Shown here one piece after another: positions 424 to 25,326 of a DNA stretch of 25,326 bases. Numbering within the stretch: position 1 is the stretch's first letter; each line of letters opens with the position of its first letter. Below the pieces are notes generated by a model. The model saw nothing but the letters and a program-made list of their open reading frames with translations. It searched no databases and was not told where the DNA came from. The stretch lies in assembly GCA_001179505.1 (NCBI GenBank), contig CDMY01000742.1, positions 1-25,326 on the forward strand, written 5' to 3'. This DNA is from Vitrella brassicaformis CCMP3155 (lineage: Eukaryota > Protista > Chromerida). The position numbers and the translations under genes are program-made.

Positions 424-427
424 CAAA

Positions 428-754: not shown

Positions 755-786
755 ATATCCATTTAAATACTTTGAAGCATATTCTT

Positions 787-1317: not shown

Positions 1318-1334
1318 TATCTATATATATTAAA

Positions 1335-1931: not shown

Positions 1932-1967
1932 TCTGGATTATTGTTGTATTATAGTATATATTTTCAT

Positions 1968-2665: not shown

Positions 2666-3112
2666 GGGGGGGGAAACTGTCATTAACCGTAACACTCGTC
2701 TGTGTGTCCGTGATACTCATACAAATACAGTCCCATCAGCACGCAGAGTCAAATAGGCTCAAGGGGAGGAGGGATCAATCCCCGCCCCATCAGCACACCC
2801 CAGTCCCGCAAACCCTCCCCTCCCTCCCCCACGCAGACAGAAGCTAGTCGCACGCGCGAGAAATTTGTGCATGTGCCGCGCTTGCAGTTGAGACAGTTAG
2901 TGCAGAGGCGCTTGTGATTCCGGCAGTCACATCGTCGGCTGCATGTGGACAGCGCAGACGTCCCTTTCTCGTTGCATGCGCAACAGGGGGGCCCGCCGCC
3001 GTCTCGCGGGATGAGGATAGGTGGAGGGGGTTGGGTGTAGTCCGATACACGCTCGCTCATCCGAAAAGGAGGAGGAACAGCCAAGAAATCACCAACTCAA
3101 TCATGAGGGGGG
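2666..3112 (-). mobile_element. Small retroelement, copy 2 (447 bp, 5'-truncated), with 12-bp TSD
   Basis: Flanked by ACCAAAATACAA at 2654-2665 and 3113-3124. It is a GC-rich island in AT-rich DNA, shares sequence with copies 1 and 3, and has short G runs at both junctions. Confidence 0.88.
2749..3060 (-). CDS. Short Cys-rich ORF inside the retroelement (103 aa), possibly the vestigial N-terminus of a non-LTR retrotransposon ORF
   Basis: MSERVSDYTQPPPP...CCACNEKGTSALSTCSRRCDCRNHKRLCTNCLNCKRGTCTN is a CXC-like cluster of ten Cys. The family assignment is inference. Confidence 0.45.
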   Translation of the reverse strand: MSERVSDYTQPPPPILIPRDGGGPPCCACNEKGTSALSTCSRRCDCRNHKRLCTNCLNCKRGTCTNFSRVRLASVCVGEGGEGLRDWGVLMGRGLIPPPLEPI

Positions 3113-3406
3113 ACCAAAATACAATTATAAACAAGTTTTGGACATTTTCAGATTAGAGAATAAAGTATTTTATCAAAGTAATTACAGAGATAAAGAACAG
3201 TTTTACAATGAAGTAAATGATAGTAATTTAAACGCTATTAATATTAAGTATGTTAACAAATGTAATATATGTGCGTCTTGTTTAAAAGGAAGAATGCAGC
3301 ATTTCAATACAAAATTTAAATCTACAAAAGAAGAAATAAAAAAATGTTTAACGCTTGAAGAATTAAGAAATATAGCGACATTCATTAAACTTCCTAATCT
3401 TGAAGT

Positions 3407-3474
3407 GCTGATGGGACTGTATTTGTATGAGTATCACGGACACACAGACGAGTGTTACGGTTAATGACAGTTTC
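3407..3474 (+). mobile_element. Small retroelement, copy 3 (68 bp, severely 5'-truncated), with 15-bp TSD
   Basis: Flanked by TCCTAATCTTGAAGT at 3392-3406 and 3475-3489. 3405-3474 is the exact reverse complement of 2673-2742 (70/70). Confidence 0.9.
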
Positions 3475-3564
3475 TCCTAATCTTGAAGTTTGTTTAAAAT
3501 ATGGGACAGATAAACTGTTGGATGAAATGATTAAATATGAAAAGGGAAAAGTTAATGTTCTGTA

Positions 3565-4046
3565 TTAAATAATAGATTGTAAAACCTTTTTACCATTTTC
3601 AATTTCTTCATCAATTACTTTACTACATCCATAACAGATATTAGCAGATATACTCCATATTTCATCAGGACACATCTTAATATTATTACAACGAACACAG
3701 AAAGCCAGTTTTTCACAATTTGTGCATCTTCTCTTGTATCGGTGCGTAAATTCAACTTCTGGTTCTTCTTTGTTGCAAAAACTACATTTTTTTTGCTTCG
3801 GTGGAGGCTTTAAATTTTCATATTCTTGTTTGAAGCATTCTTTACATTTATAATTCAATCCATCTTTTGTAGATTTATCCTTGCTAAATTCTTTCTGATT
3901 TTTCATAGATTGACATGCAGTGCATTTCTTACAATAATTTTCATCTATTTCTTTATGCTGTCTTTGTTTACGCAGTGTGTTTCTTCTTTCTTTCCATTAT
4001 CACATTTTCTACGGTAATTCTTATAACCATTTCCGTATTTTCCATA
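3565..4046 (-). pseudogene. Viral multi-Zn-ribbon protein, frameshifted near its 5' end
   Basis: ORF 3565-3906 extends upstream in frame as ..YCKKCTACQSMKNQKEFSKDKSTKDGLNYKCKEC, a CxxC...F...DG...CxxC ribbon common in viruses. An ATG at 4046 (MEKYGNGY..) joins it through a one-base frameshift. Confidence 0.6.
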
Positions 4047-4237
4047 ATGTTTAACAAATTCAATGATATTTAATTTCTGAAAGCATCTATTGCATTCACG
4101 TGTTTCCATGTTTTCTCGATATATATATTATCTTTATAAATCTTTAAATAGTAATAACCCCTTATTTTATTTTTCCCTTTAAAGATATGGAATGCTTGTT
4201 TATATAGATTGAGAAAAATATTGATACCTTTAATATA

Positions 4238-7200: not shown

Positions 7201-7475
7201 TTTCAAAAATAGATTTGAGTGATGTAGAAATACAACAAGACGAAAAACATTATATTACTTACGATATGTATTTTACAGATGAGCCTACAGTAATTAAGTT
7301 GCCTAATAGAATTAAAAAAGTAGCATTTAATCGAACAAAAAATCAGTTAATGAGCGGTGTGGATATATTCAGTATATTATGCAATGATGAGCAAAAAACA
7401 TTTAGAAAATCATTCTTCGATAAAATGGAATTTAAAGATGGACAATGGTATCCATCAAATTATTCTACACAATAA
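4238..7475 (+). pseudogene. polB: Protein-primed family B DNA polymerase (probable terminal protein, vOTU, exonuclease, polymerase), fragmented
   Basis: ExoI FVGFDLET, ExoII FNGCRFD, ExoIII YLKYD, motif A DVSSLYPTAM, PSYIGTFILDYSK, motif C YYTDTDS and PKCY are spread over ORFs 4238-4879, 5070-5747, 5744-6487 and 6576-7475. There are several frameshifts, and motif B (KxxxNSxYG) was not found. Confidence 0.95.
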
Positions 7476-7490
7476 TATAATGATACAATA

Positions 7491-8591
7491 ATGCCATTAT
7501 CAGATAATCAGAAGAAAATATTGAGAGATATCTATTACAGTCCAGCAACCGGATATCAATCAGCAACACAACTATATCGTAAAGCAAAACAACAAGATAA
7601 AAGTATTACACAGAAAGGCGTAAAAGATTTTTTAAGTCGTCAAGAGATACAGCAGACATACATACAAGTGACGAGAGCAAAGGGTTTTAGTTTTATCGCT
7701 CCTCACAAGCGTTTTGAGTTTCAAATTGACCTTGTTTTTTTGCCCAATCCTCGATTTAATAATGGATACATCGGTTTATTGACTTGCATCGATGTATTTA
7801 CCAAAAGAGCGTGGGCTGTGCCTATTAAAGACAAAAAAGCAGGAACTATAGTAGAAGCATTTAAAGTAATACAGACAAAGCTAGGGAAACCAAATTATAT
7901 ATTCTCTGATTTAGGCAGTGAATTTTTGGGTGAATTTACTGAATATTGCAGGCAAAATAATATCACATTATTGAATTCCAAAAGTAAGTCCGTATTTGTT
8001 GAACGATGGCATAGAACGATTAAACTGATGATGAATAAAGCGTTGAGAAGCAAAAACTCAAAATCTTGGATTAGTATATTAAATGATATATTGAATAACT
8101 ATAACTCATCTTATCATACAACAATTAAAATGGCACCTAATAATGCTGTGAAGGCGGAAAACCAGGAAGAAGTCATGAAGAATATTATTAAGAGAGCACA
8201 CAGAGAGCATATTAAAATACCACTGAATAAAGGAGATAAAGTAAGAATTAGAATTGTAAAAAATGTATTTACCAGAGGGTTTAAACCTACGTTTTGAAAA
8301 GAGATATATGAAATTCAAGAGGTTAACGATAATATACCGATGACACCGTATAAAGTCAATGGAAATTATTTCATGAGGGCTGATTTATTGAAAGTAGACG
8401 CAGAAGGAGTAGAAAGAAATGTTCAACCCATGCCAATTACTGTGCAGGAGAGGCGAGAACGTGAACAGAGAATAACCCAATCAAAGCAACCTGAAAATAG
8501 GATTGGTACTCGTGCTTTCGCTAAACAGAAAGGTTTTGGATTGAAAACGCAAAGAAAAGAAGGAAGACTTGAAGATTATGAGGAACTTTAA
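7491..8591 (+). pseudogene. int: Retroviral-type (rve, DDE) integrase of Polinton type with an in-frame TGA at 8295-8297
   Basis: FQIDLV, LTCIDVFTKRAWAVP, FSDLGSEF and VERWHRTIK motifs. The N-terminus IYYSP..LY is typical of Polinton integrases. ORF 8340-8591 is in the same frame after RGFKPTF*KEIYEI. Confidence 0.95.
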
Positions 8592-8600
8592 TCGCATTCA

Positions 8601-8924
8601 TTAAAAAACACCTGACGAAAAGACAAATAGACTATATGATGATTTAACTATAAATGCTAATACTACAATAGAAACTATTGATAAAGTAAAATTAGATCGC
8701 TCTTTGACCTCTTTTGGAAATCCAATTCCAAAAATGAATTCAAGCACCTCCATAGCACTTTTATATCCCTTATCAAGTAATACCCAAAATTCATTTAAAA
8801 TCATCTTCAAAGTATTTCGTAGCATATCACCGAATTTAGGAATATTAAGTAAATCACTCAAATTTATATTACCTAATCCACCTCCTTTCCCTCCACCTCC
8901 TATTAAATCGCCTAAAAAATCCAT
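8601..8924 (-). CDS. Small predicted membrane protein (Gly-rich N-terminus, C-terminal TM helix)
   Basis: MDFLGDLIGGGGKGGGLG..., amphipathic middle, hydrophobic FTLSIVSIVVLAFIV near the C-terminus. Confidence 0.7.
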   Translation of the reverse strand: MDFLGDLIGGGGKGGGLGNINLSDLLNIPKFGDMLRNTLKMILNEFWVLLDKGYKSAMEVLEFIFGIGFPKEVKERSNFTLSIVSIVVLAFIVKSSYSLFVFSSGVF

Positions 8925-8943
8925 TTAGTTAATATATAAATCC

Positions 8944-9219
8944 TTATAAAAGAATAATAAACATCGTAGCATAAACACCAAAAGCAATTAATGCTCCGAT
9001 ATAAATGAAACCAAATACCGACAAAAATGTCTCCCAGATTTGATTAAATATGTCTTTAACATCATCAAGAATAACCTGTATCGGTTTAAAGATTTCTTTT
9101 ATCATATCTTCCAAAGCACCAGTAATATCAAACCCGCCACCACCTCCTCCTAAAAAACCTTTTCCTCCTCCTGTTATTAAGTCTTTGGCACTTCCTACGG
9201 GGTCAGTAATCCAATTCAT
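8944..9219 (-). CDS. Small predicted membrane protein, probable paralog of 8601-8924
   Basis: DLITGGGKGFLGGGGGG, amphipathic middle, hydrophobic C-terminus FLSVFGFIYIGALIAFGVYATMFIILL. Confidence 0.7.
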   Translation of the reverse strand: MNWITDPVGSAKDLITGGGKGFLGGGGGGFDITGALEDMIKEIFKPIQVILDDVKDIFNQIWETFLSVFGFIYIGALIAFGVYATMFIILL

Positions 9220-9620
9220 TATTCAGTTATTTCTTTATAGAAACGTATATAATTACATAATTGATTTATGACAAATTCTTTATCTCCGTCAAACTCCATG
9301 TTTTCCAACACTTTCTTTACAAATTCTTCCAGTTTATTCTCATTAATTATCGGGTCAAAAATCATTAAAATGAAAAGTCTAACTCTCATTACATTATCTT
9401 TAACGAATTTTGGTGTGATTTTCATTTCAAGTAATTCATCATAACTACATTTTTTCAATTCTTCTTTTGCTCTTTCCTTTAACGCATCGGGTAATTCACC
9501 GATACAAAACTTATCTAATTTTTCTTTGTTAATTTTACTATATACGTTGTCTTTAATAAACGCCTGTAAATTTTGTCTTCTCCTTAAATAGATTAATAAA
9601 TTCTTCTGTAAACATTTCAC
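9219..9620 (-). CDS. Viral hypothetical helical protein (true ATG probably 9615 with an early frameshift)
   Basis: 133-codon ORF starting at GTG. An ATG at 9615 in another frame (MFTEEFINLFKEK) overlaps its start. Confidence 0.6.
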   Translation of the reverse strand: MKCLQKNLLIYLRRRQNLQAFIKDNVYSKINKEKLDKFCIGELPDALKERAKEELKKCSYDELLEMKITPKFVKDNVMRVRLFILMIFDPIINENKLEEFVKKVLENMEFDGDKEFVINQLCNYIRFYKEITE

Positions 9621-9631
9621 TTAAATTTAAG

Positions 9632-9662
9632 TATATATATGTATATATATATATATATATAT
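9632..9662. repeat. (TA)n tract between divergent viral genes
   Basis: Directly visible. Confidence 0.9.
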
Positions 9663-9670
9663 TAAAATTA

Positions 9671-9892
9671 ATGAATAAAAATAATAAACCGAAGTAAGAT
9701 GCTCAACGCAATCGTGATTATCAAAGAGATAGACAGCGAAAGATATATCAGAAATATCTGGAATATGAGAAAATGAAAGAAAACTATGATAAATTACTAA
9801 ATGACTACAAAACACTAATTGATAAGTATAATGATTTAACTAAAAAACAGAAACATTTAGAAATACAACTTGCTAAACTACATATTATTTAA
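9671..9892 (+). pseudogene. bZIP-like basic and leucine-zipper mini-protein with an in-frame TAA at codon 9
   Basis: MNKNNKPK*DAQRNRDYQRDRQRK...MKENYDKLLNDYKTLIDKYNDLTKKQKHLEIQLAKL has five Leu at exact 7-residue spacing. It is absent from the ORF track. Confidence 0.5.
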
Positions 9893-10152
9893 TTAGAATT
9901 CAGATACAGAATTACTAAATGATTTATTTTTTGAAAGGAAATATAAGACATATATAATAAAACAACTACCCAAAATGATGCCGAATGAGTTATTTATGAT
10001 GGATGATAAATTGATTTGTGATGCCATGGAAACAGATGGTGCATTTTGGTTATTTTCCTCTTCCAGTTTTTTTTGAGATTTTTTATTATTTCATCCATAT
10101 TTTCATCATTACTACTCGTATCAGGCATAGGAGGGATATTAAAATTTTCCAT
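9893..10152 (-). pseudogene. Small protein with C-terminal TM helix, frameshifted in an A8 run
   Basis: MENFNIPPMPD...KNLKK, then shifted frame LEEENNQN...SFGIILGSCFIIYVLYFLSKNK...*. Confidence 0.5.
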
Positions 10153-10228
10153 AATTACACGATTACTATATTTCAATACGAAAAAAAATATAAAACAATT
10201 GCAAATTAAATATAATGATATATAAAGG

Positions 10229-10809
10229 ATGCCACGAAGTAATAAAGCTTTTGATAAGTAATTGAGGATATTAAGAAATCAACCGATGATGTTGATACAT
10301 CAGATATGCTAGAAATAAATGAAGGCGAGACATCATTTAATCTTGAACAGGAGTTAGAAAAGGATATGTTGAAAGCAAAGTATAATTCCTACTGCTGTTT
10401 GTTTCCTCATAAAAACTTTCAAAAATTACAAGCAAATATAAGCATCGGAGAATTAAAAGACAGGTTAGAGTATTGCCGTCTCTCTTCACAAATGGCAACA
10501 GATGCGATAGATACATCAACCTCCTATATTATCAGTAATATAGGAATGGTTATTGAAAAATTATTGCCGAAACTGACAAAAATACCACTCGATGGATTGA
10601 CTGACATGTTAAAAGAAGATGGTAATTTTATTACGACTTTAAAGATGCTTCTAGTCGAAAATCTTGAATACATCCAAATCGATCCGAGAATTCGATTGAT
10701 TGGTCTTTTAGTCTTTGCCGTGATTAAATGTGGAATTCAAAATATGGTCAATCCGAAACCGACACCAGAAAAAACAGAAGAATTAAAAACTAAATATTCT
10801 AATATATAA
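10229..10809 (+). CDS. Viral helical protein of unknown function (likely 5' frameshift; ORF track start 10306)
   Basis: The 167-aa ORF extends upstream in frame. An ATG at 10229 in another frame follows a TATATAA. Confidence 0.65.
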
Positions 10810-10814
10810 TTAAT

Positions 10815-11840
10815 ATGCCTCATCGTCAGAAGTGGTTAGAAACTGACAATTTAGTTGTTGATAATGTGTTTGTAGAAAAGAATTTACAAGGTATTAAAAT
10901 AGGAGATAAGACTGAATATTACGATGAAAACAAACATAACATAGCGATTATAGATGAGACAGACAATTTTAAAGTATTGGAAATACCACCTATGGAATAT
11001 ATGCCTGATGGTAGAGTAGTTAGGGATTACCAAAATTTAGAATGGGTTGTATCGGAGCGGATGAGACATAGTAATTTTGAATGGGTAGGTGATATGATGG
11101 ATTGGGCAAATGGTTATTATGAAAATCCAAGTGGTCATAATTTCGGATACTATTTAAAAGCGCATCAAGAATTAGGGATAGATATAACTGATTATGTGGA
11201 TTATGCGAAAAAATGGAAACATGAAGATTATTTAATTTATCGTTTTACTATGGGAGGAATATATATTGAAAATGGTGAATTATACTGGAAAAGAATGGTT
11301 GAGCGTGTCATTAAATACGCACCAACCGATATGTCCGAAAAATGGATTAAAGAATTTGAAGATATTACTAAAAATTCTGTTGAAGCGACTTTGGAAACTT
11401 GGGATTATACACACTCACCATCGGGAAAAATTATATACGATGTTGATAATAAGAAATATATTTGGGTAAATGATGAGACAAAAAATGAAGAAGGAGGAGT
11501 ATATGACCCTGAAACAGGTTATACTTATCCTCCTGATGATAAACCGATAGTAGGCGATACTGATTATAGTAAAAAAGGTATATTTGCTATATTTTTCATT
11601 TTCTATGACTATGTTAGACTTATCTATGATTTTTACTATGAATTTTTTGATAAAATGTTAAATTTAAGTAAATATCCTACAATCAATCGTAATTACAACC
11701 CCGATGTTTCAAAAGACGCTTTTGGTAATTTTATGAGTATGGTTTTGATTTATTATGGTAGTATTATGTCAGTAGGCTCTTTTGTTAAGATTGTACAGAG
11801 TTCATTATGCGGTGAAAAGTTTATAATAATAATATATTAA
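10815..11840 (+). CDS. Viral hypothetical protein (341 aa) with hydrophobic C-terminal segments
   Basis: Intact ORF with hydrophobic stretches GIFAIFFIFYDYVRLIY and FMSMVLIYYGSIMSVGSFV. Confidence 0.72.
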   Translation: MPHRQKWLETDNLVVDNVFVEKNLQGIKIGDKTEYYDENKHNIAIIDETDNFKVLEIPPMEYMPDGRVVRDYQNLEWVVSERMRHSNFEWVGDMMDWANGYYENPSGHNFGYYLKAHQELGIDITDYVDYAKKWKHEDYLIYRFTMGGIYIENGELYWKRMVERVIKYAPTDMSEKWIKEFEDITKNSVEATLETWDYTHSPSGKIIYDVDNKKYIWVNDETKNEEGGVYDPETGYTYPPDDKPIVGDTDYSKKGIFAIFFIFYDYVRLIYDFYYEFFDKMLNLSKYPTINRNYNPDVSKDAFGNFMSMVLIYYGSIMSVGSFVKIVQSSLCGEKFIIIIY

Positions 11841-11847
11841 CAATAAA

Positions 11848-12114
11848 ATGTCTGATAGAGGAGCAGGAGGTTTTATAATGAACGAAATTGTATTTCCAGT
11901 TTGAGATACGCTTTACGAAATAATGTTTCGTGCGATAGATGGAGTTATGAACAATGCGTTAAAGAAATCAAACCCTGATTTAGACCCTCAACTTTCAAAA
12001 TATGGGAAGGGGAGCAGATTGTTTTTATCTTATATCGTAACTATAGTTGGGAGTGTAGTTGAAGCGGGAATAGCAATACGACTTTGGATGTTATTTGACC
12101 AATTGAGAAGATAA
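11848..12114 (+). pseudogene. Small predicted membrane protein with an in-frame TGA at 11902-11904
   Basis: MSDRGAGGFIMNEIVFPV*DTLYEIMFRAID...LFLSYIVTIVGSVVEAGIAIRLWMLF. Confidence 0.55.
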
Positions 12115-12160
12115 ATAAATTATTTATTTTTTTATATAAGATATATATAACTAATTTAGA

Positions 12161-12658
12161 ATGTCAGCAGAGTTAGAAGACCAAGCAACAAGTGGATTTG
12201 ATTTTCTTACATATTATGTAACATTCGTCCAAACTTTTGCTAAAACTAATATGAAAAGTATTATCACTTCGTCAATGGTCTGGGGCATACAGACAATAAA
12301 CCCCTATAAAAAGCAAAGACAGGAAAGATATGTAGCAGGATATAGAATATCCCCTGAAATTTATGAAGGTGTAAATTCTCTACTTACAACTTATAGTGAT
12401 GCTTTGAATGATATTTTGTTGTCACCTATTTTCTTGAATTTGCCTATGGAAAATAAACTTGTAGCATCAGGAATTAAAGGTGCGGTTTCACGAATGGTTA
12501 TGGAGTTGTTATTCAATCAAGATCCTGATTATTCACTGGCAGTGGTCTATTTCACCGCTCATGCTGGTGGTGAATTCGTAAGTGATATGATTATGGAAAA
12601 AATGACCACAACTACTCCGCCTGTCAATGAAGGAGAGAATACAGAACCATTAGCATAA
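12161..12658 (+). CDS. Viral hypothetical protein (165 aa), candidate structural protein
   Basis: Intact ORF immediately upstream of the MCP, preceded by a T-run/TATATAA motif. Confidence 0.72.
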   Translation: MSAELEDQATSGFDFLTYYVTFVQTFAKTNMKSIITSSMVWGIQTINPYKKQRQERYVAGYRISPEIYEGVNSLLTTYSDALNDILLSPIFLNLPMENKLVASGIKGAVSRMVMELLFNQDPDYSLAVVYFTAHAGGEFVSDMIMEKMTTTTPPVNEGENTEPLA

Positions 12659-12673
12659 ACCATAATTAATTAA

Positions 12674-12695
12674 TTAATATTTTTTTTATATATAA
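12674..12695 (+). promoter_or_regulatory. Putative viral late promoter TTAATA(T)8ATATATAA upstream of the MCP
   Basis: A near-identical copy at 14041-14064 precedes ORF 14080. Each ends 15-16 nt before the ATG. Confidence 0.55.
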
Positions 12696-12711
12696 TCAGT
12701 TTATAAGTGAT

Positions 12712-13946
12712 ATGTCAAAATCTGTTGTTGAGAAGTCCCTTTCACTTCCCAAAAATACGGACTCTATTTTACAGCGATTTACTCATAGGCCAATTAAATC
12801 AAAGTCAAACCTTGTTTTTAATCTACCAAGCCGCAGTTTATCAAATACTTCAAGTTGGAACCGAAGTGAATGGCGGGTGTATCATAAAATTTCTGGGCAA
12901 ACATCGTTTTCCGGAAGTGCTGTATGGGAATTGGAGGAAAACTTTATGTTGATTGAACCATATTTAGAAATCGAATTTGAACCCTTAACGCAGACTGGTG
13001 GAACTACACAATATTATCATCGCACAGCACTACTTATCGATACTATAACTCTGTTTAGCGGGGGTGGAAGTCATCAATTAAAGCAGATAGAAGGAACTGA
13101 TTTATATTTTAGCATACTATTTTCACACACTAAAGATGCTCTACAAACGATTAATAGTTTCAGCGGATTAGAAAGCAGTGTTGAACGCTCACAGAATAAT
13201 ACCGATGGCAAACTTCGGTATTTCTTACCTTTGAAGTCAGTATTTTTCAACACCAATATTCCGCTGTGGTATTTGAAATCGAAACTTCGTCTGGTCATCA
13301 AATTCAAGGATGCTTCGGTGGCAAGTTATGGAGATGGAACATCACCTTCAACTCCGGCGATTAAACACTGCCTGCTTCATTGTCATTATATGGATTACAA
13401 CAGAAGCGTTAAACAAGCACTAATAGCAAATCGTAATATTAAACATTATCGTGTCGTTTCAAGTCATCGCACTAAACTTCATATTCCATCAGGCACCCTT
13501 TCATTTGCTGACCAATACCTAAATTTCAACCATCCATCGATCGTATTACAAAGGTTAATGCGGAAGGAGATGATGTTATTGACAACAATGTGCCTATCAA
13601 ACAATTCGTGCTAAAAGACCAGAACGGGACAATTATTAGTTATGCTTCTCCAATCGATGGTGAGTTTTGTAGGTCGGTATTAGCGTATACTCAGTGGGAC
13701 AATTTTCTGAGGAACTCGCCTTTTCTTGACGTAAATACCCTTTATTTTTTCAGTTTTGCTCAAAATCCAGCAGTCGCACTTTTGACAGGAAATAACACGG
13801 GCTGGAGACGCTTATTTTCAAATGAGAGAATTACAATCGATTTCGATAGTCCTACATCAGAAGATTATACGCTTCATCTAATTAGTTATGCGTATGAAAT
13901 GCTACAATTAAATCCTGCTAATGGAAGTTTAGTTGTCCTTTCTTGA
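12712..13946 (+). pseudogene. MCP: Double-jelly-roll major capsid protein, split into two overlapping ORFs (12712-13614 and 13590-13946)
   Basis: LIDTITLFSGG...IEGTDLY, YFLPLKSVFF..NIPLWYLKSKLRLVIKF and C-terminal YFFSFAQNP...TG...YAYEMLQL resemble DJR MCP motifs. It lies in the same element as the packaging ATPase. Confidence 0.85.
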
Positions 13947-14079
13947 TGTGTTTGATATTTAATTCAGTACAATATCACTTAAAGCACTTATTATAATATA
14001 ATGAATGATAGATGTTTAAGTGAATATAATTTTAATTAAATTAATATTTTTTTTATATATATAACTTTGTTAAACAGAA

Positions 14080-14643
14080 ATGGCAGCAGTACCAGCAGCA
14101 ACTAATATTAACCCTCAGGGTCTTGTTAATGCAGTAAGTCAATTACGTCCAGTAGTACGTCCTGGTCAAACGGCAAGAGCAACAAGAGACAGCACAATTG
14201 AACCTCATGGAATTCAAGATAGTGAGTTATATAATATTATGCAAGGCTTGGGTCATGCAAATGCTGATTATCACGCTCAACCAATTGTTAATGACAGTGG
14301 AAATATCGACAAACAAATTATTCGCTTAACTAATTATATTCGTTCTGTTACTCAACTACAAGGCTACTTGACTAATAAACTCAATGAGCTTATTCGTATT
14401 CGGTCATACATTAAAAGTACTAAAATTTATTACATAACCAAATTTATGAGACTTGGATATACTGAAAATGAAGCTGTATCTATGGCACAAGCTGTCATTA
14501 ATCCTATTGCCTCTGCTGAACTTAAAATGGATAACGAACTACTACCTGACAAATTAAGTCAGTTAGCTATGCAGACACAGAGGCAGACATACAACGACCC
14601 GAACTTGCGTCTTGGTCAAGCTCTGATAAACCAAGGGAGGTAG
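14080..14643 (+). CDS. Viral hypothetical protein (187 aa), candidate virion protein
   Basis: Intact ORF sharing the MCP upstream motif. Confidence 0.75.
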   Translation: MAAVPAATNINPQGLVNAVSQLRPVVRPGQTARATRDSTIEPHGIQDSELYNIMQGLGHANADYHAQPIVNDSGNIDKQIIRLTNYIRSVTQLQGYLTNKLNELIRIRSYIKSTKIYYITKFMRLGYTENEAVSMAQAVINPIASAELKMDNELLPDKLSQLAMQTQRQTYNDPNLRLGQALINQGR

Positions 14644-14675
14644 GCAAAAAAAAATATATATATATAATATAGAAT

Positions 14676-15631
14676 ATGAGTGCTTCTAGTGAAGATACAT
14701 TACTTCATTCTATCTATAACATGGCTAATAATTCAACACAATTAAAAGAAATACATGACTTGTACTGGGGAATGAATGATGAAGAGCGACAAAATTATGA
14801 TGCTGGCCTGAACTATCTTAAATCACATGCTGAAAGTTTACTACCAAAAACACCTTTGTTTAGTCTACACAATGTTAGTGACATACCGCCTGAACTGGAA
14901 GAAGGGCAAATGTTATTTACTTTCCCTCCAATAAACAAGAAAAAAGGATTTACTTGGGATAAAGATACCTTCTATAATTTTAAAGATAATCGTGCTTTGC
15001 TTGTTAATGTGAATGAACTTAATAAAGAAAATAACTTGATGCTTTTTTGAATGTCGTTAAAAGAAATGATATACTTAAAGGTGCATTAAATAATAGAGAT
15101 AATGGGTTTAATGTTTATTCATCCAATTTAAATAATCCAACCATTAAATCATTCTTTCAGAAATTTTTGGGTAAAAATGCTAATGTTGATTTATCTGTTC
15201 AAGAGGTTCTTAAAGTAGCGGACAGTGATGAAATACAAGACCAATTAATTAATGCTCGGTATGTTCCACCTCCACAGCAACCAGCACCACCTCCTCTTCC
15301 ACCTCAAATTCCTCCTGCTGATGGAGGCTTGCCTGAACCATTAGAAGAATCGCCTTATGAACCACAACCTGAACCGGCAGAACCGCCACCTCCTGCATTA
15401 CCCGAACCAGCACCCGAACCGCCCACTAATTTTCCACCCAATTATGAACCAGAACCTGAAACAGGAGCAAGACAAATACCACCTCCTGCACCAGAGCCAC
15501 CGCTTAATATTCCACCTGAATGGAACCCTCCTGCACCAGCCTATGGGGAGGGGAGGGCAACAACACATCGAACAACAAGAGGGCCAAGAATAGAAGATAA
15601 CATACAACCGCTACTGCAAGTCCCACGTTAA
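14676..15631 (+). pseudogene. Viral protein with a Pro/Glu-rich C-terminal region, split by a probable 1-bp deletion near 15035
   Basis: ORFs 14676-15050 and 15047-15631 join as ..KEN(K)LDAFLNVVKR.. if one A is added. There are repeated PPPAPEPP motifs and a PPNY. Confidence 0.62.
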
Positions 15632-15632
15632 T

Positions 15633-16295
15633 TTATTCTATAATTCCAAACCATTTATAATCACAGTAATTCTCCTTTATTTCTGTGTTTGAACTGCGTG
15701 CATTTACTGAAACAAAACAATAATTATTAGTAGCATTATAAAAATACTTATAAAATTCTGATTTTTTCTTGCCATCATTAAATATCTCTTCGTGAAGAAT
15801 TGCCAGACTAGCATGGCCACATTGGCGTAATAAAAATGCAAAATCATAAATGCTTCTTATTAATGTTGATACTCTTTTTACAGACTGACTTATTAGAATA
15901 ATACTGACATTCATATGCCTAACAATAGTAAGTAATCTCTCAAATTCCTTGCTTCTCGTATTGTCCATCGTAGCAATACTATCATCAAGTATCATTAGCA
16001 CTCGTCTTCGCTTCTTTGTCTTCTCTTGATGTTCCGCCAACGCCTTGATTTGCTCTTCTGTTATTTTGGTCAAAACCTTATGACGCTTCACGCCAGTCTT
16101 CAACCACAGTTCAGGTTGCACCGTCACAATCACTTCATCATCAAACTTATTCCTATCCCGCAGATACCGATATAATGATAGTGCAATCAAGGTTTTTCCC
16201 GTATTTATACGTCCTGTAATTAACAATATCCAGCACTTCTTCTCGTTCGCGATCTTGTTGAATATCTCTCGGCAGTTCCGTATTTTTTCGTGCAT
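15633..16295 (-). CDS. A32/FtsK-HerA-like genome packaging ATPase, intact
   Basis: Walker A ITGRINTGKT, Walker B LMILDD, and downstream VRH and ISQ motifs. Confidence 0.93.
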   Translation of the reverse strand: MHEKIRNCREIFNKIANEKKCWILLITGRINTGKTLIALSLYRYLRDRNKFDDEVIVTVQPELWLKTGVKRHKVLTKITEEQIKALAEHQEKTKKRRRVLMILDDSIATMDNTRSKEFERLLTIVRHMNVSIILISQSVKRVSTLIRSIYDFAFLLRQCGHASLAILHEEIFNDGKKKSEFYKYFYNATNNYCFVSVNARSSNTEIKENYCDYKWFGIIE

Positions 16296-16308
16296 CTCAT
16301 TTATTAAT

Positions 16309-16497
16309 TTATATATTATTATTCTTTGATTCCATTTTTGTATTGACTGCGCGCTCTATCCGTCGAGCCACCTGCTCCGCATTCTTTACTTTCGCATTTT
16401 TCAGACGCTTTAAATAAAACTGGTAAAGTATTCTTCCATCATTATCATCGTTTGTATTTTTATTTTTTTTCAGTCGCTGAATTAGACTATTAGACAT
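16309..16497 (-). CDS. Small basic viral protein (62 aa)
   Basis: Lys/Arg-rich ORF directly upstream of the ATPase on the same strand, preceded by TATATA. Confidence 0.55.
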   Translation of the reverse strand: MSNSLIQRLKKNKNTNDDNDGRILYQFYLKRLKNAKVKNAEQVARRIERAVNTKMESKNNNI

Positions 16498-16540
16498 TAT
16501 ATATGATAAAATTAAAAAAACAACAACGCACTTTTAAAAT

Positions 16541-17083
16541 TCACCGCTGTGCATCGTGACAATATGGGGCGGTATTCACCTGCCCTGCCACCACCTGTTC
16601 ATTGTTTTGCCATTCTCCACACGCCCATTCCTCATTTCCTCTCCATTGTTTTTCTCATTTGTCACGAGTAGTCTTTTCATCTCGTGTCAATCGTCTTTTG
16701 ATCTCATCCATTTGTTTTTCTCATTTGTCACGAGTAGAGTTTCTATCTCGTGTCGGTCGTTTTTTGATTTTTGAACGTGTCTTTTTTTTCCTCTTTTTGA
16801 GGCACAGGCAACTGAGTGCCTTTCTCCTCCTCTTTGAGCCACCTCCGTTAATACCAAACCCCGTCCACTCTCCCTGTGAGAGCTGGCCGTTAGCAGGTCT
16901 AGCCGTTCGTTTAGTCGGCTCGTATCGTAAATTCCGTATACCATCCCCCTCCCAAGATTTGAACCTCTGCGGTAATGAATGGCATAAACCCAGTTTTCCC
17001 ACTGAACTATGGTGGCAGGCGTCGGGGGGGGTCTGCTTAGTATGGAGGAGGTGGTAAATCACTTAGTATGCTGGTAAATCACT
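16541..17083. repeat. Candidate right terminal inverted repeat of the virus
   Basis: Non-coding region of intermediate GC. It has an internal tandem duplication (26-bp exact core at 16646-16671 and 16712-16737) and a terminal repeat TGGTAAATCACTTA at 17052-17065 and 17072-17085. The partner TIR is not in the window. Confidence 0.5.
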
Positions 17084-17203
17084 TATTAAGCTCGCATCGT
17101 CTTTTCAGCGGGTCTCTTGTCGTTTCTGACGTCGCATCTGCCAGTTTCGCTTGTCGGTTGAGTTCCAGTCAACGTTTCCTCTGTTTTCATCCATTGGCAA
17201 GCG

Positions 17204-17712
17204 ATGGCGTGGACGTCACAGACCCAGTTGCCCTTCTTCGTCCTGATTTTGGGCATTCACGCCGTTGTGGTGCATCCGCTGTATCACAGCAAGGCCATCG
17301 ACCGCAACAGCAATGACCCCTTCCCGCACAGCCAGTGGGTAGAGGAGGTCAACGAAATCATCGAGAGCGCCGTGCGAAAGGTGCCTCGTGCGGCGATGGC
17401 GGGGCAGCAAGGGGGTAGCAGCAGCAGCAGCAGCAAGAAGAAACGACCGAGTGTGAACCTCGCCAACCAAGACCACACGTGTGCGCCACTTACGGCTGCA
17501 ACAACAAGGTGGGGTCGGGTCGGTGCAAGGTCTGCCACTGTTGCGGGAAGGCGGTGTGCAAGATGCACGGGAACGGGCACCACTACACCAACAACGAGGT
17601 GGTCGGCATGATACTCAACAAGATGAAGAAGATGGGAATGATGAGCGAGGAGAACTTCGTGTGCCTCAACTGTGTTAAGGTCAAGTTCGTCCAGGGTGTG
17701 AAGGCTCACTAA
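17204..17712 (+). pseudogene. Possible piggyBac-like transposase 3' remnant
   Basis: A GVDVTD motif resembles piggyBac GGVDxxD. It is followed by a hydrophobic L....A....LY helix and then, after a frameshift near 17478, CATYGC...CHCCGKAVCKMH...VCLNC, which resembles the piggyBac C-terminal Cys-rich domain. No TIR was found. Confidence 0.42.
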
Positions 17713-17840
17713 GTTGCCCATCCATGGCCTGTCTTGCCCATTCGATGGATGGATTAGTTGTGAGCGCGAGTTCACACCCTGGCCGACCTGCTCTTTTCTT
17801 GATGGATGGATGAATATGAGAGAGGCCAGCTCTCTGCTTC

Positions 17841-17871
<31 letters not shown>

Positions 17872-17961
17872 TATGCGGCTTGCCCATCTCTTTTGAGTGT
17901 CAGCCAACACAGACCGGTTGAGTGCACATTTCCCGTTGGACAAAGGTCACTGTGCGCGTGT

Positions 17962-18076
17962 GTGTGGAGGGGGGGGAGGGATTCATTGCATTCCATTCCA
18001 TCGCTTGGTGGACGCGTGTGTGTGTGGACCACGCAATGAAATGGAATGCAATGAATCCCTCCCCCCCCCTCCACAC
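17962..18076. repeat. Foldback hairpin (about 43-bp arms, 28-nt loop), MITE-like
   Basis: 17962-18004 matches the reverse complement of 18033-18076 with two substitutions and a one-base G-run difference. A partial third arm lies near 18190-18210. Confidence 0.85.
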
Positions 18077-18216
18077 CAGCCACACCGACAGAGACAGACA
18101 GACAGACAGACAAATGCGCGATATCAAAGACGGACGGGGGACATTTCGATGAGGGACAGTGGACGGACCTGTATGTCTTCATGTGGGCGGGGGATCCATT
18201 GCATTCCATTTGGTTG

Positions 18217-18246
18217 TGTGGTGTGGTGTGGTGTGGTGTGGTGTGG
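18217..18246. repeat. (TGTGG)6 microsatellite, one of many host simple repeats (others: TC about 17838-17870, CA about 18817-18864, GT about 19305-19330, GAG about 24394-24428)
   Basis: Directly visible. Confidence 0.9.
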
Positions 18247-18644
18247 TGCACCGTCCCTGGTGCCTGCTGGCTGGCTGGTAGCTGACGTGCCCTTTTCGGC
18301 CTACACGTAAAGGTGTGCTGAAACACACAACACACACAGAGACAGCCAATACGCACACCCATTGATGTGTGCGTGTGGTGTATATTTGTTTCTTTCAGTT
18401 TCTGATGCGTCTTCGCGATCTGCATCGATGAGCGAGGCCTCGGTTGGACACGCCGCACACGCGATGCTCTAAACTGCGAGCTCCCTCCTTCCCCCGTTCG
18501 CCGAAAAGTGCCGAGACCTTCTGTTAGGAAGCGAAGGAGACGCTGAGAGAGAAACGCTGGAAAACTGAAACGAAAAGCGGGCCTGGATTGCCAGCTTCGT
18601 CTCATGTGATTTATCGGTGGGTAAAGTGCGCTGATATAGGTCAT

Positions 18645-18731
18645 CTGAGTGTTCTCATTCCTATGTCCCCTCCCTGAGTGTTCTCATTTCCATGTCCCCT
18701 CCCTGAGTGTTCTCATTCCCATGTCCCCTCC
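18645..18731. repeat. 29-bp minisatellite, three copies
   Basis: CTGAGTGTTCTCATTCCTATGTCCCCTCC units start at 18645, 18674 and 18703 with no spacers. Confidence 0.95.
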
Positions 18732-19735
18732 CTGGCCGCGGAATGTCTCGCTTCGTTCTCCCATCTTCATGATGGCTCTCCCCCACAACACACACCCACC
18801 CACCCACCCACCGAATCACACACACACACACACACACCCCAACACACACACACCCACACACACACGTCCTCCCCCTCCACCCACACCCAGCACAGAGCAG
18901 CCGGTCGTCCGGCCCGCACGCACTCTCGATTCGAGTACACATGACTGCCTGGCAAACAGCCACACAGACACACTGTGGGACACATGGCCACAGATGCACT
19001 TATCGATTACAAAGACACACAGACACGACGAAGAAACAAACTACCGGCGATGGCACTTGAGCTGCAAGAGATGTCTCCTTCCCTCCCACCCCCACATGCA
19101 AACACACACACATGCACGCAGGCAGGCAGGCAGCATGCCACACGCAGACGCAAGACACGCATCAACAAGGCTTGTTCTACTTGCTGCACTGCACTGCACA
19201 GTCAGTCAGTCGATGTACGGGTGGTGAATGGAATGAGACGATAGATACTTGTGGACCGACCGACCAAGACAGAAAACATGGCGACAAAGAGGGACGAATA
19301 CGCACGTGTGTGTGTGTGTGTGTATGTGTGTATGGTGCAGGCCCACGCACACGAGAGAGTGAGCATAAGTGTGTGTGTGGCCGAGTCAGTCGAGTGCCTG
19401 TCTGTGATGGATATCATTGGAGGCCGGATGCGTGGATAAAAATGACTGACTGTATGACGTGACGTGCGTGTTGTGTGTCATCGGACTCTCTCGCCCCCAC
19501 GGAGGCGAGCACAAATCAAATACGATCATGCAGCCAGCAAACTTGAGGCATGCAACGCAGCCACGCACCCCCCCGCCCGACACAGACGCCCCAGCATTTA
19601 TTTGCTCATCCACCGAGGGAGCAAAATAAATCAGTGAATAAACGCATCCACGCAGACAGACAACGAATAATAACACGACAACACAGGAAGGAACGAAGGA
19701 AGATCGACCGAGCGAATCGTCCGCTCACCGCCCGC

Positions 19736-20445
19736 CTAGGGTCTGAGAAGGTTGCGTCCTGAGCCATTCTCAGCCTCGTCCGGCTCCTCGAAGGCGGCCT
19801 CAAAGACATGAAGCAGCTCAGTGCTGTTCAGCTCATCGAACTGGACCACGGGTAAATTGTCAAAGGTAGTGTCATTGCCGTGACGGGGCACAGGCTCTGA
19901 CACGCCAATGGGTCTCCCACCGGGGCAAAAGAGGGTGATTCTAGTCTGATCAGCACCACTTCGTTCTCTGATACCGTTGAAGCTCTGAAACAAACGGACA
20001 CACTACTGCATAGACGCAACGGCATCTCGAGATGTGCCTCCAGACTTACAGATCCGAAACAATCTATGGGGGCGTCGCCGGTCCAGCGCACTATGCCTTG
20101 GTCGCGGCGTCGGGCGAAAGCCACCCAGGTGTGGAAGCCGCCAATGTGGTCGACATCTCTGCGAGACACACATAACACGACTGTACCGCGCGGGCGGGAT
20201 ACTGAGCATTCCATATCTCACTGGATTGTCGCGCATTGGCCACGAGCGACGCTGGGGGTCTCCGGAAGAAATCCGAAACGACATTCGGGAGAGTCGAAAC
20301 TCTGGGGAAAAACTCTGATAATCATCAAGGGTGAAAAGGTCAGGGGGCAGTTGTTGCACAAGATAAAGGTGTGGGCTGAGATCCCAGGCAGGTGAATCGA
20401 CGCGCTGAGCAGAGCCAGGGCAATCGCAGCGAAAGAGCGGGCCAT
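19736..20445 (-). CDS. Host three-exon gene for a secreted Cys-containing protein (193 aa); exons 20445-20222, 20158-20050, 19984-19736
   Basis: Signal-peptide-like MARSFAAIALALLSASIHLPGISA. Introns of 63 nt (GTGAGA..CAG) and 65 nt (GTAAGT..TTTCAG) have compatible phases and give a 582-nt CDS. Confidence 0.75.
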
Positions 20446-21483
20446 GCTGAGAGAAAGAAGGCTGAGAGTTCTGACGGCCGGGTGGACAGTGTCTGTCAAG
20501 GCCTGGCGGTCCCTCTCCTTGCCGCACTGCTTCCGTTAGCGTCTTCGGTTAGCGTCATCTTTCGAATTCGGATCGCAGGCGTTGGCCACCTTCGCCATCT
20601 GCCATTAATTCGCCGGGGGGAGGAGATCACAGGAGACCACGCGAATCTTCGCGAGCTTGAATGCGAGCTTTAAAAAAACGGCCCTGCGTGCCCATTTTCC
20701 GGGCAGGATGGCGAAGAAGAAGATGACACATCGTCAGAAGAAGAAACAGCGGCACCAGATCATCATAGAGGAAGAAGCAACGCTGCGGCAGAAACAGCTC
20801 GACAAGCGGCGCAGGCGGCAGCAGAAGGACAACAACATGAAGGTCTGCCCAACGCCCTGTGCACAAAAGAGCCGCCGGACAGATCGACGAGTGGCTGGTG
20901 TGCGTTGTGCGTTTTGTGTGCAGGAGGACACGCCGCCTCAGGGTTCCAAGTGCATTCCTTGTATACACAACAAGCCATGACCAAGCAATGTACTCCGCTG
21001 TGTGTGGCGTTTCACACCAGATGTTGCCTTTGGCTTGGAGTATCTGCAGAAGAGCTCCACCATCGTCACAAGACCAGGCATGTCGACGAAGCAGATGGTC
21101 TTGTGCGAAACGGGCTCGATGCAAGTGCGAAATGGGCTCGCGCTTTGCAACGCCTCGGCCTTGCATCGGCATCTGTTTCCGCCCAACAGTTCTCTTCGGC
21201 AGCAAACGACTTCATCTCAGGCTCTGCGCCGCTAGCGAGATAAGGCGACCGGAATTCTAATACCCTAGCCCAGTTCAATTAAAAGTCCCACGTACACCCC
21301 GTTTGTGGAGGGAGAAGAAGGAGAGAGAAAAGAGGGATTCCCATCACTCCCACCTCCATCAGCATTCTTCAACCGCAGATCTTCACTTCCCGCCTTCGCG
21401 TCTTCGACTTCGACCTGTCAGCGACTCCCGACTCGCTCCCTCTGTCATCTCCTGCCTGTTTCGCTGAATTGTCTGTCATCATC

Positions 21484-21798
21484 ATGGCTCTCTTCCCGCG
21501 CCTGACGCTGTTGGTGCTCGCCGCTCTGCTGGTGGGGAGCATGGCCGAGGAGTGCGTGACGGACTCCGACTGCGACTCATCAGATGACGTCTGCAGGAAG
21601 AATGATGATGGAGAATGGCGGTGCGAATTTGCTGATAGTTGTGGAACCCCCTTTTGCGACTTGGATATCAAGATCCCATCCCCCCCTATAATGAATGACA
21701 TGAGAGGTCGATCTGCCCGCATCAAGCTAACTTGCACTTCATGGCCAGAAACGTGCATGAGTAGGTGCGGCGAAAGGAGTTCAAGTGAGATATGGTAG
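21484..21798 (+). CDS. Host small secreted Cys-rich protein (3' end may be spliced)
   Basis: MALFPRLTLLVLAALLVGSMA followed by EECVTDSDC...C; eight Cys in about 85 aa. Confidence 0.5.
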   Translation: MALFPRLTLLVLAALLVGSMAEECVTDSDCDSSDDVCRKNDDGEWRCEFADSCGTPFCDLDIKIPSPPIMNDMRGRSARIKLTCTSWPETCMSRCGERSSSEIW

Positions 21799-23143
21799 CG
21801 TCTTCTCTCCACGATTCCCTGGGAGGAGCAGGGAGGCGGCAAGCGTTCGGGTCGCTGTGAAACAATTGTACTTCTCCCTTCAGTTCCAACACTGTGTCTT
21901 TCCTTTCTTCGCATTCTCGCGTCATGAGCAAGGCGACGAGACACATGAATTTGATGAAATCATGGGGTGTCGTGCGTGTCGTGATCCTCGTGGTCCTGGT
22001 GATACTCGGCGCGACGCCAGGCGGTATGCAGCGGATGAGTGGTGGCAGTGGAAGGGTGGTGTGAGAAGGGGGGTGTTCGTGTGTGCAGGTAGTTGCCGTT
22101 CGGCGCGGCGGCAAGGGTGGAACGACACGCGCGGAGGGGAAGCGACATGTGGAGTGCTTTGTCGTGGGCGAGGAGGGTCGATTCGGGTGGAGGATGGTGA
22201 GTAGCAGCATTGAGGAGGTGGCCAACTGTGTGGCTCTGTTTTGTTTCAGGTGTGGCGAGTGAGACGATGGGTGCTGGTGAGCTATTGAGGCGACGAGTGT
22301 CAGCAATGCATGCGCCGTTACTGTTTGTCCCGCTGCGTGGTGGGAGCATAAGCGAATGTCGAGTGCTGGCGTGTCGTCGTCTGAGTGTGTGGGGGTGGTG
22401 TGTTGCGCAGGAGTGTGTGAGCGTTGGTCGAGGGACTTGCACTACACATATGCACGTAAGCGAGAGGGAGAGAAGACAGGAGGGCGAGGCAGGTGAGAGG
22501 CGCGTGTCCCTTCGAGAATCGAATGAATGGTGAAATACCGACTGAAAGGTAGGACACATGCCTGACTGAAAGGGCGTGTGGCGAAGGCGAGAATGAAAGC
22601 GAAATTGAGCGTGGCAAGAGCTACGTCCTCTGTGACGCGCGAGTGGAATGATTGGAATGTGATGGACGGGAAGGGGCATGTGCACAGATGATTAGGGAGA
22701 GGCACACAGAGAGCAGAGGAGGCACCGAGAGAAAGGGAGGTGACCATTGTCTGGTTTGATGATGTGTGCAGGTGCGGTGCGTCGTAATGTCCATGTCCAC
22801 ATGAGTATTGACGTGTAGGTAGAAGGATCTGTCCCATGACATGAACACGTAGATCCACATGAAGGTCGGGTTTCATGATGTGATGCACACACACACACAC
22901 ACAGTGCGGTCTGTACAAGATCCTCCACAAGAAATAACCACAAGAAATAACGCCCACAGAAAGAGAAAGACAGCCACATGCAAAGCAGCCACCACACTCA
23001 TCGATTCAGCGACTCCACCAGAAAGACACAGGCCAGAAAGAAGACACAGCTGTGCACAGCTCCCATGCACACAGAAAAAAAAGTCGCCAAGTGAGGCAGC
23101 ACGCCATAGAACACCAGCACTGTCAGAACGTAATCGTCCGTCT

Positions 23144-23336
23144 TGCTCTAAGATCCCCTCCCCCGCTCTCCGTAGCGGCCAGGCCATTTGGGACCCCACG
23201 CGGGTTCGAACGGCTGAGCTAGAATGACGGCCAACCTAAGATCCGCCACCAATAGACTATATAGCCGAGTTACTATCCTGAGCACCCGGTGGCCCTCGTC
23301 ATTGTCATGTGACCTCTTTCGCGCTACCCTGTAGCA
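23144..23336 (-). repeat. 3' LTR of the TRIM
   Basis: Direct repeat of 23442-23634, bounded by TG..CA. Confidence 0.9.
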
Positions 23337-23339
23337 TTA

Positions 23340-23349
23340 CCCCTCTTTC
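23340..23349 (-). promoter_or_regulatory. Polypurine tract
   Basis: Minus strand GAAAGAGGGG lies 3 nt before the 3' LTR. Confidence 0.75.
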
Positions 23350-23422
23350 ACGAGCGTTGAGCTCCGTCCAGCGCCCAGCCTCAAAGGTCACATACTTCCG
23401 ACGGCTACCTCGATCTTAGGCC

Positions 23423-23439
23423 TCCCGGACGGTGTACCA
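23423..23439 (-). promoter_or_regulatory. Primer-binding site, complementary to a tRNA 3' end (probably tRNA-Gly)
   Basis: Minus strand TGGTACACCGTCCGGGA starts 2 nt after the 5' LTR. Its complement CCCGG-ACGGTGT-A-CCA has T-stem, acceptor-stem, discriminator and CCA spacing. Confidence 0.75.
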
Positions 23440-23441
23440 AA

Positions 23442-23634
23442 TGCTTTAAGATCCCCTCCCACGCTCTCCGTAGCGGCCAGGCCATTTGGGACCCCACGCG
23501 GGTTCGAACGGCCGAGCTAGAATGACGGCCAACCTAAGATCCGCCACCAATAGACTATATAGCCGAGTTACTCTCCTGAGCACCCGATGGCCCTCGTCAT
23601 TGTCATGTGACCTCTTTCACGCTACCCTGTAGCA
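23442..23634 (-). repeat. 5' LTR of the TRIM
   Basis: Direct repeat of 23144-23336 at a 298-bp offset; contains TATATA. Confidence 0.9.
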
Positions 23635-24240
23635 GTCCACAGGACGGACAGATTGGTCTCGGGGTGGCGGCGATCGTTGTTGCACGTCCCGCCCTCCTGC
23701 GTCGTCGTGTTCGCGCACTGGATGCCGGCGTACATGCGGCGGCTGACAATGCTGCGTTGCATCTACACCACAGACACACACACACACACAAGATTAACAC
23801 TCCCTGCCCCTTACTCACCGCGCCAGGAAATTCCTTCATCCAGCACTTGCACTTGAACCAACGAGGGGGGTGGAGTGATGGCTGTTCGAATCGACACAGC
23901 CCACCAGACGTCAAAACTCCCATCAATTCACGTGCCACCGCACGAACCACCGCCCAAGCATGACACCCGATCACTCTCCTCTCAAGCTCTATAGCAACCA
24001 CCTTCCCATCTCAATACCGCCTGCAAACACCACAATACCTGCAGACTCCTCTAAACGACATCTGTCACTCACCGGCACTTTTGTGGAAAATGCATTTTCC
24101 AACCGAGCAGTGCGTCATTAGACGCCAGCACGCGTCCTGCAGCAGAGAGAAGGAGAGAAAACACGATCGGCGAGCTTTTCCTTGCGAGCTCAGGGCAAAT
24201 CCGGTGTTGTTCGTTCGTTCGTTCGTCGGAAGCGAACTCT

Positions 24241-24264
24241 GGCCGCCTTCGGCCGAAGGCGGCC
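24241..24264. repeat. Perfect 24-bp GC-rich palindrome
   Basis: GGCCGCCTTCGGCCGAAGGCGGCC equals its own reverse complement. Confidence 0.95.
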
Positions 24265-24529
24265 GTCAGAGAACTAGTCTAATATAAAAAGCCGTAACAA
24301 ACCCTAGCGAAACCCTGGACCAGGCTCGCCGAGGCTCGCCCTGCAGGCTCGCCCCCACGATCGCTGCCTGCCGCAGTAGAGAATGAACAAGGAAGGAGGA
24401 GGAGGAGGAGGAGGAGGAGGAGGAGGAGAAGGGACGTAGGGAGAGCGTTGGTGCTTGTTGCGGAGCCTTGGGGCAGGTGGGTGGGCGGGAGGGAGGGAGC
24501 TGACATGCATTGCCTTGACTGTTGGCCTT

Positions 24530-25151
24530 GATTCTTCGTGCAGGCCCGATCGCGCTTCTTTTCCTCGGCTCCCACCCGATCGGGTTTGCACGAAGAATTG
24601 CGTGTTGCAGACAGAGATTCGCCCAAATCTCAGACAGCGTCGCACTCATGAGCCAGCCGCCTTCAGAGACACCCTTGCTACGGGCCGCTCGCGAGCATGA
24701 CAGGCATGACGGCGACGGCTCACCCTCTCACAAATGCACATGGAGGACGGGGACGGCCACAGGGCATGCGCATTTCCACACTGGCCACGGGGCGGGGTGT
24801 GTGCGTGCCTCTGAGTGTTTGTTTCTGTCTGGCTTTGGCAGGGATGTGTGCCGTATTGGGCCGTTGAATGGGATGGTAAATGATTAGAATGATGAGGAGA
24901 GGAAGATGACTTCGTTCCTTATCAGGTGAGACGCAGCTCAAGACTGTAGCCATTGAATGATGTTTGGTATGGCTCTGTGCGGTCTGTGTGGTTATTGCTG
25001 ACAGGCGCCTCATGGGCCCGGGTTCCCTGAGGCTCGGGGCAGGTGGGTGGGTGGGAGGGAGGGATTCTTCTTGCAAGCCCGATCGCGCTTCTTTTTCTCG
25101 GCTCCCACCCGATCGTGTTTGCACGAAAAATTGCGTGTTGCAGACTGAGAT
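24530..25151. repeat. Dispersed 89-bp direct repeat (24530-24618 and 25063-25151)
   Basis: GATTCTTC...CCCGATCGCGCTTC...TTGCGTGTTGCAGAC.GAGAT occurs twice with a few substitutions. Both copies have an upstream GGGGCAGGTGGGTGGG.GGGAGGGAGGG block. Confidence 0.88.
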
Positions 25152-25326
25152 CCTGTGTAGTTTGCTGGCAGGCGCCTCATGGGCTTCCGCCTATGTCTTC
25201 GCTCCCGTTGGACGAGGATTGGGGGACCCGAGTGGACAACACAGTTGGTTTCATCGATTTTTGACCTCACACACCAGGGCAGATGGGAGCCAATGCATGA
25301 TGTGTGTGTGTTCTCTGTGTGTGTGT

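Follow-up and report, generated by a model that had tools for sequence, protein, structure and literature searches.

The window, the whole stretch of 25,326 nucleotides analysed here, contains near its right end two direct repeats that enclose a very short interior. The question raised by this locus is whether the repeat pair is a miniature LTR retrotransposon that moved in this small form, the remnant of a longer element, or a local duplication that resembles one. Bases 1 to ~235 of the window are GC-rich (51-56%); positions ~236 to 16,800 are AT-rich (GC 22-37%) and filled with tightly packed frames; the DNA beyond ~16,800 has a GC content of 54-57%, is rich in microsatellites and contains no recognisable gene. 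The 491-bp element (23144-23634, minus strand; 193 + 105 + 193) sits within this GC-rich, non-coding right-hand part. It is real but ordinary, and it belongs to a well-described class, the TRIMs. We consider it a non-coding element with TRIM architecture that was likely transposed in its miniature form, with a probability of roughly 0.6.

The two LTRs are on the minus strand, with the 3' LTR at 23144..23336 and the 5' LTR at 23442..23634. Both are 193 nt long and have TGCT...AGCA ends, which read thus on either strand. A comparison by script showed 187/193 identical positions, with six substitutions and zero indels (97% in the repeat search). These values agree with the initial annotation, which had reported 193-bp LTRs of about 97% identity with TGCT..AGCA ends; its interior of only 105 bp was also confirmed (23337-23441). 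The orientation, which it did not state, is that of the minus strand, so that reverse-complementing 23442-23634 gives the 5' LTR. Read in this direction, the 5' LTR is followed by a 2-nt spacer (TT, 23440..23441) and by a putative primer-binding site (PBS) of 18 nt (23422..23439), TGGTACACCGTCCGGGAG, which starts with TGG. The next 72 nt (23350..23421) have no coding capacity. They are followed by a polypurine tract (PPT) of 10 purines (23340..23349), GAAAGAGGGG, and by a 3-nt spacer (TAA, 23337..23339) ahead of the 3' LTR. The PBS 2 nt past the 5' LTR and the PPT 3 nt ahead of the 3' LTR had both been noticed earlier, and both are present as described. Runs of 10/10 purines fill 0.9-1.5% of positions in the host part of the window, which is the background for the PPT. 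On the plus strand, no TGG follows the first repeat and no purine tract precedes the second. Because the PBS and the PPT are absent from the plus strand, the minus-strand orientation is unambiguous. Two short words recur within the element on the minus strand. Each LTR holds two copies of GGATCTTAG, one of them at the extreme end of U5, and the interior has a single copy of the reverse complement of this word. CGTGAAAGAGG is found at the PPT and again close to where the 5' LTR starts.

The complement of the PBS is CTCCCGGACGGTGTACCA, which ends with GTGTACCA and not with GTGCACCA. We take its layout to be that of tRNA positions 59-76, consisting of CCA, the discriminator, seven acceptor bases, and a five-base T-stem strand from C61. 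On the same assumption, the likeness to a tRNA is lost exactly past 18 nt, where A58 would stand. A tRNA 3' end that fits the PBS, with CCA added, would read CTCCCGGACGGTG(C/T)ACCA. The primer may be a Gly-type tRNA, as the initial annotation suggested, and if this tRNA ends with GCACCA, as we assume it might, the PBS holds one mismatch. In plants, the TRIM primer is the initiator tRNA-Met; the primer predicted for the element is different. Self-priming of the Tf1 type was also considered and rejected. The longest Watson-Crick pairing between the PBS and the LTR is 4 nt, below the 5-6 nt found in most of 500 shuffles of the PBS. Since the LTR contains no self-priming complement, a tRNA primer is the simplest reading. 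ARAGORN at default settings found no tRNA genes in the window.

The flanks of the element carry a putative 4-bp target-site duplication. The sequence at 23140..23143, which lies downstream when the element is read in its sense direction, is GTCT on the plus strand (AGAC on the minus strand), and that at 23635..23638 is GTCC (GGAC on the minus strand). They match at 3/4 positions, so the imperfect GTCT/GTCC duplication of the initial annotation was reproduced. To these flanks can be added the terminal dinucleotides, the PBS and the PPT, and the combination was compared with a chance control in which the 193 + 105 + 193 geometry was slid across both strands of 17000-25326, giving 15,656 placements with an arbitrary local duplication as the null. 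TG..CA ends were found in 0.72% of these placements and flanks agreeing at >=3/4 positions in 6.1%; a TGG stood 0-5 nt from the LTR in 11.1%, and 10 purines in a row stood 0-5 nt from the other LTR in 2.4%. The product of the four frequencies is 1.2e-6. All four features occurred together in one placement, which is the real one.

This control bears directly on the idea that a 298-bp unit, duplicated in tandem or segmentally (1.65 copies), mimics an LTR element. Local duplications do occur nearby, including tandem arrays and a second repeat at 24463-24618 / 25029-25151, and only a single copy of the element was seen. However, a duplication would have had to bring together by accident four hallmarks that coincide in 1/15,656 placements, and the other duplication of the window carries none of them. 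Such an origin is therefore very improbable. The second repeat is ~125-155 nt long and 92-93% identical, with a 33-nt indel and a 22-nt hairpin. Because it contains no TG..CA ends, PBS or PPT, it is different in kind from the LTR element, and is perhaps MITE-like. The GC-rich part also contains a long hairpin (17955-18082 / 18185-18222) with 41-nt arms that are 93% complementary. Several microRNA families matched this hairpin, all far under their gathering scores, and a third copy of its arm is found 119 nt downstream.

An assembly artefact is unlikely because the junction between the 3' LTR and its flank was recorded independently. This junction is crossed by a 104-aa frame (P0002), which was recorded from 2 contigs, the longest being 1,451 nt. 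With the element and one copy of the duplication removed, the restored empty site would read ...CGTCCGTC(Y)ACAGG.... The insertion site is palindromic (23128-23143 and 23635-23655): its left side carries GTCCGTC and its right side GACGGAC, and these would pair as a 7-bp stem that surrounds the empty site once restored. This palindrome is off-centre relative to the duplication and may be of chance origin. The frames that span the restored empty site are 41-176 aa long, no longer than many chance frames of GC-rich DNA. The idea that a gene was broken by the insertion was rejected as uninformative, since these frames resemble chance frames.

The element has no coding capacity. Six-frame translation showed stops in every frame, and the longest open stretch (56 aa) lies within an LTR. 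The five frames overlapping the element matched no Pfam family. The surrounding DNA (16500-25326) contains 53 stop-to-stop frames of at least 90 aa in 8.8 kb. None of these frames matched a Pfam family at E <=0.001, with one sub-threshold DUF match, and none contained a reverse transcriptase, retroelement integrase or gag domain. An autonomous LTR partner was not found within the 25-kb window, nor were any LTR or element fragments beyond the two repeats. Other types of small repeat-bounded elements were considered as well. A retrozyme was rejected because the hammerhead was not matched in 23100-23680 (Rfam, E up to 10). The DIRS and Ngaro groups were rejected on the basis of the plain direct TG..CA repeats, the PBS, the PPT and the near-matching flanks, and no recombinase domain is found nearby.

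Further copies and relatives of the element were searched in several collections. An LTR 38-mer and 21-mer gave no match in the viral contig set, a 24-mer gave none in the metagenome contig set, and a 24-mer and a 23-mer gave none in the prokaryote genome contig set. Peptides derived from the LTR retrieved only the window's own frame P0002 from a protein set of 5.8 billion clusters, and one unrelated repetitive protein (E 9e-4) from a set of 1.84 billion representative proteins. The peptide searches rely on spurious gene calls, and a 30-aa query missed even the window's own frame. Most of the material in the collections is of prokaryotic or viral origin, which gives low power for a eukaryotic repeat. 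These searches, being weak tests, give no sign of a family and do not establish single-copy status.

The PBS was searched separately as an 18-mer with one position set to R, which matched 47 metagenome loci and 1 viral locus. In none of the 48 loci does the match follow an LTR-like end within a repeat. Most of them lie in high-GC, bacterial-looking coding DNA, and one group has a common conserved context. The two loci in which the match is preceded by CA (L021 and L031) are both bacterial-looking over their full length. ARAGORN was applied to 6 of the 48 loci and found a single tRNA, distant from the match. The PBS and tRNA strings were also searched in the literature, and nothing relevant was found, as judged by title.

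The single copy and the divergence of the LTRs raise the alternative that the element is a one-off relic: an autonomous LTR retrotransposon would have inserted here and later lost its gag-pol region by deletion in place, so that the miniature form never transposed and no family exists. The LTRs, the PBS, the PPT and ~72 nt would then have been spared by accident. The searches agree with this in finding one copy only, although their power was low. The six differences between the LTRs correspond to 3.1% divergence (Jukes-Cantor distance ~0.032), which would leave time for decay. At assumed rates of 1e-9 to 1e-8 substitutions/site/year, which are not host-specific, the LTR age is ~1.6-16 million years. 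However, the deletion must have spared the 18-nt PBS and the 10-nt PPT and yet removed nearly all of the sequence between them, and no remnant of a coding domain is left. The decay of LTR elements more often gives solo LTRs or truncations, which also counts against a relic. We regard this origin as rather unlikely, but it should be kept in mind. Transposition in the miniature form is the preferred reading. The initial annotation had called the insertion fairly recent; the 3.1% LTR divergence, the imperfect duplication and the possible PBS mismatch point instead to an older copy.

The LTRs were also examined for promoter and RNA motifs. A TATA-like CTATATAG is found at 23257-23264 in the 3' LTR, ~70 nt into the LTR, and might act as a promoter element. 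The sense strand of both LTRs also contains an A-box-like TAGCTCAG, then a B-box-like GTTCGAACCC, and then a CCA-ended stretch, ...GGGGTCCCA. These words suggest another possibility, that Pol III drives the element, which would then be a Helenus-type TRIM (TRIMp3) with a cut-down tRNA-derived internal promoter in its LTR, made of TAGCTCAG, GTTCGAACCC and the CCA-ended tail. When relaxed to the 80% threshold, ARAGORN draws one sense-strand 'tRNA-Asp(gtc)' per LTR, which might favour this reading. However, no tRNA was found in the LTR at the default, 100% and 90% thresholds. At 80%, 30 dinucleotide shuffles of the host part gave a mean of 7.3 calls per 8.3 kb vs 4 in the real sequence. The two drawn cloverleaves have different acceptor stems and many mismatches. 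Rfam families were not matched in 23100-23680 at E up to 10, including tRNA, 5S and hammerhead; because the E-value is scaled to 4,227 families, a tRNA match of very low strength could stay hidden. The spacing between the A-box-like and B-box-like words is ~10 nt, whereas the usual spacing in tRNA genes is ~30-60 nt. The tRNA-like unit in the LTR was thus rejected as noise, since the shuffles outnumber the real calls and the drawings disagree, and a Pol III-driven element is improbable here. If it were true, the element would be a Helenus-like, Pol III-transcribed miniature retrotransposon and would represent a protist TRIM family outside animals, fungi and plants.

Under the preferred reading, in which a TRIM was transposed in its miniature form, we infer the helper, the membership of a multi-copy family and each step of the life cycle from the anatomy of this one copy. 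Transcription by RNA polymerase II would begin downstream of the 5' LTR's TATA-like CTATATAG and terminate within the 3' LTR. The primer for the minus-strand DNA would be a host tRNA, which may be of the Gly type, annealed to the PBS, and that for the plus strand would be the PPT. An autonomous LTR retrotransposon outside the window would supply in trans the reverse transcriptase, the RNase H and the integrase, the last of which would make a target cut staggered by 4 bp. In animals, 4-bp duplications are associated with Gypsy-type helpers and 5-bp duplications with Copia, as described in PMC10886601. By analogy, the 4-bp duplication may be a weak hint of a Gypsy-type helper.

According to the descriptions in PMC6934838 and PMC10886601, TRIMs measure less than 1000 bp, encode no protein, and have terminal direct repeats of 100-250 bp with an interior that runs from PBS to PPT. 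They were first described in potato and Arabidopsis and later in animals, as cited in the same two papers. The element fits this description: it is 491 bp long and non-coding, with 193-nt LTRs, a putative PBS of tRNA-type layout at the start of the interior and a PPT at its end. The TRIM-type structure proposed in the initial annotation therefore stands. The putative short target-site duplication would be a further likeness. The differences are that the element was seen as one copy, in a protist-like genome, and that its duplication is 4 bp and imperfect, whereas the plant and fungal elements have 5-bp duplications according to PMC10886601.

Helenus, Cassandra and Ajax were classified as TRIMp3 (Kojima 2024, PMC10886601). 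As described there, they are miniature LTR elements with a PBS and a PPT, as in the element, and the animal Helenus has 4-bp duplications and uses a tRNA 3' end as primer, both of which the element would share. However, the tRNA- or 5S-derived LTR unit that defines these groups was undetected in the element. The SMART elements, in the description of PMC10886601, are likewise non-autonomous LTR elements of very small size, the movement of which is attributed to an autonomous element. They are ~292 bp long, compared with 491 bp for the element. Retrozymes (PMC5680766) are also described as small non-autonomous LTR elements, but they contain hammerhead ribozymes, which were unmatched in the element.

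Among unicellular eukaryotes, 240 potential TRIM sequences, amounting to 5.48% of the genome, were reported for the haptophyte Tisochrysis lutea (PMC5963040). As described there, this set came from an automatic classifier with a limit of <4 kb and no manual check. The likeness to the element lies in the TRIM label, which was given there to LTR derivatives lacking coding capacity in a single-celled eukaryote that is not a plant. TRIM-class sequences are already on record from green algae. Among the papers retrieved on TRIMs in protists, none had such a report as its topic, as judged by title or abstract.

The left part of the window is of a different nature. The AT-rich block (window ~236-16800, ~16 kb) has GC-rich DNA on both sides. 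It contains a protein-primed family-B DNA polymerase (Pfam match at 5744-6487), which appears to be split over at least three frames (4208-4879, 5001-5747, 5651-6487 and 6540-7475), an rve integrase (7491-8297), and, on the minus strand, a Pox_A32-type packaging ATPase (15633-16295) and a RING protein (1335-1931). Such a set of genes fits an integrated Maverick/polinton-like virus, possibly one that is decaying or that carries frameshift errors. No close relative of its viral genes was found in the viral contig set, and the integrase matched only generic rve clusters in the protein atlas. The block is more notable than the miniature element that adjoins it.

Several repeats were observed in and around this block. 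A GC-rich island (2745-3105, 57-62% GC) lies inside the AT-rich DNA and contains a Cys-rich 103-aa frame (2749-3060, minus strand). The last 106 nt of the island (3000-3105) are 96% identical to window positions 1-106; because of this match, the GC-rich repeat stands once inside the viral block and once on the left border of this block. A 73-nt inverted repeat (2670-2742 / 3405-3477, 99% complementary) brackets the island together with 300 nt of AT-rich DNA. Its right arm (3405-3477) is flanked by a ~13-nt direct repeat, TCCTAATCTTGAA, as if inserted. A 66-bp unit is repeated 1.9 times (16642-16768) in the zone of rising GC content that ends the viral block on the right.

In summary, the element at 23144-23634 has the anatomy of a TRIM, with a combination of features that is improbable by chance. 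If a family exists, a protist genome would gain one further LTR retrotransposon of the non-autonomous kind, and a helper with the same tRNA primer, active now or until recently, would be indicated. Such a family would be an aid to repeat annotation and a possible strain marker, with no concept changed.
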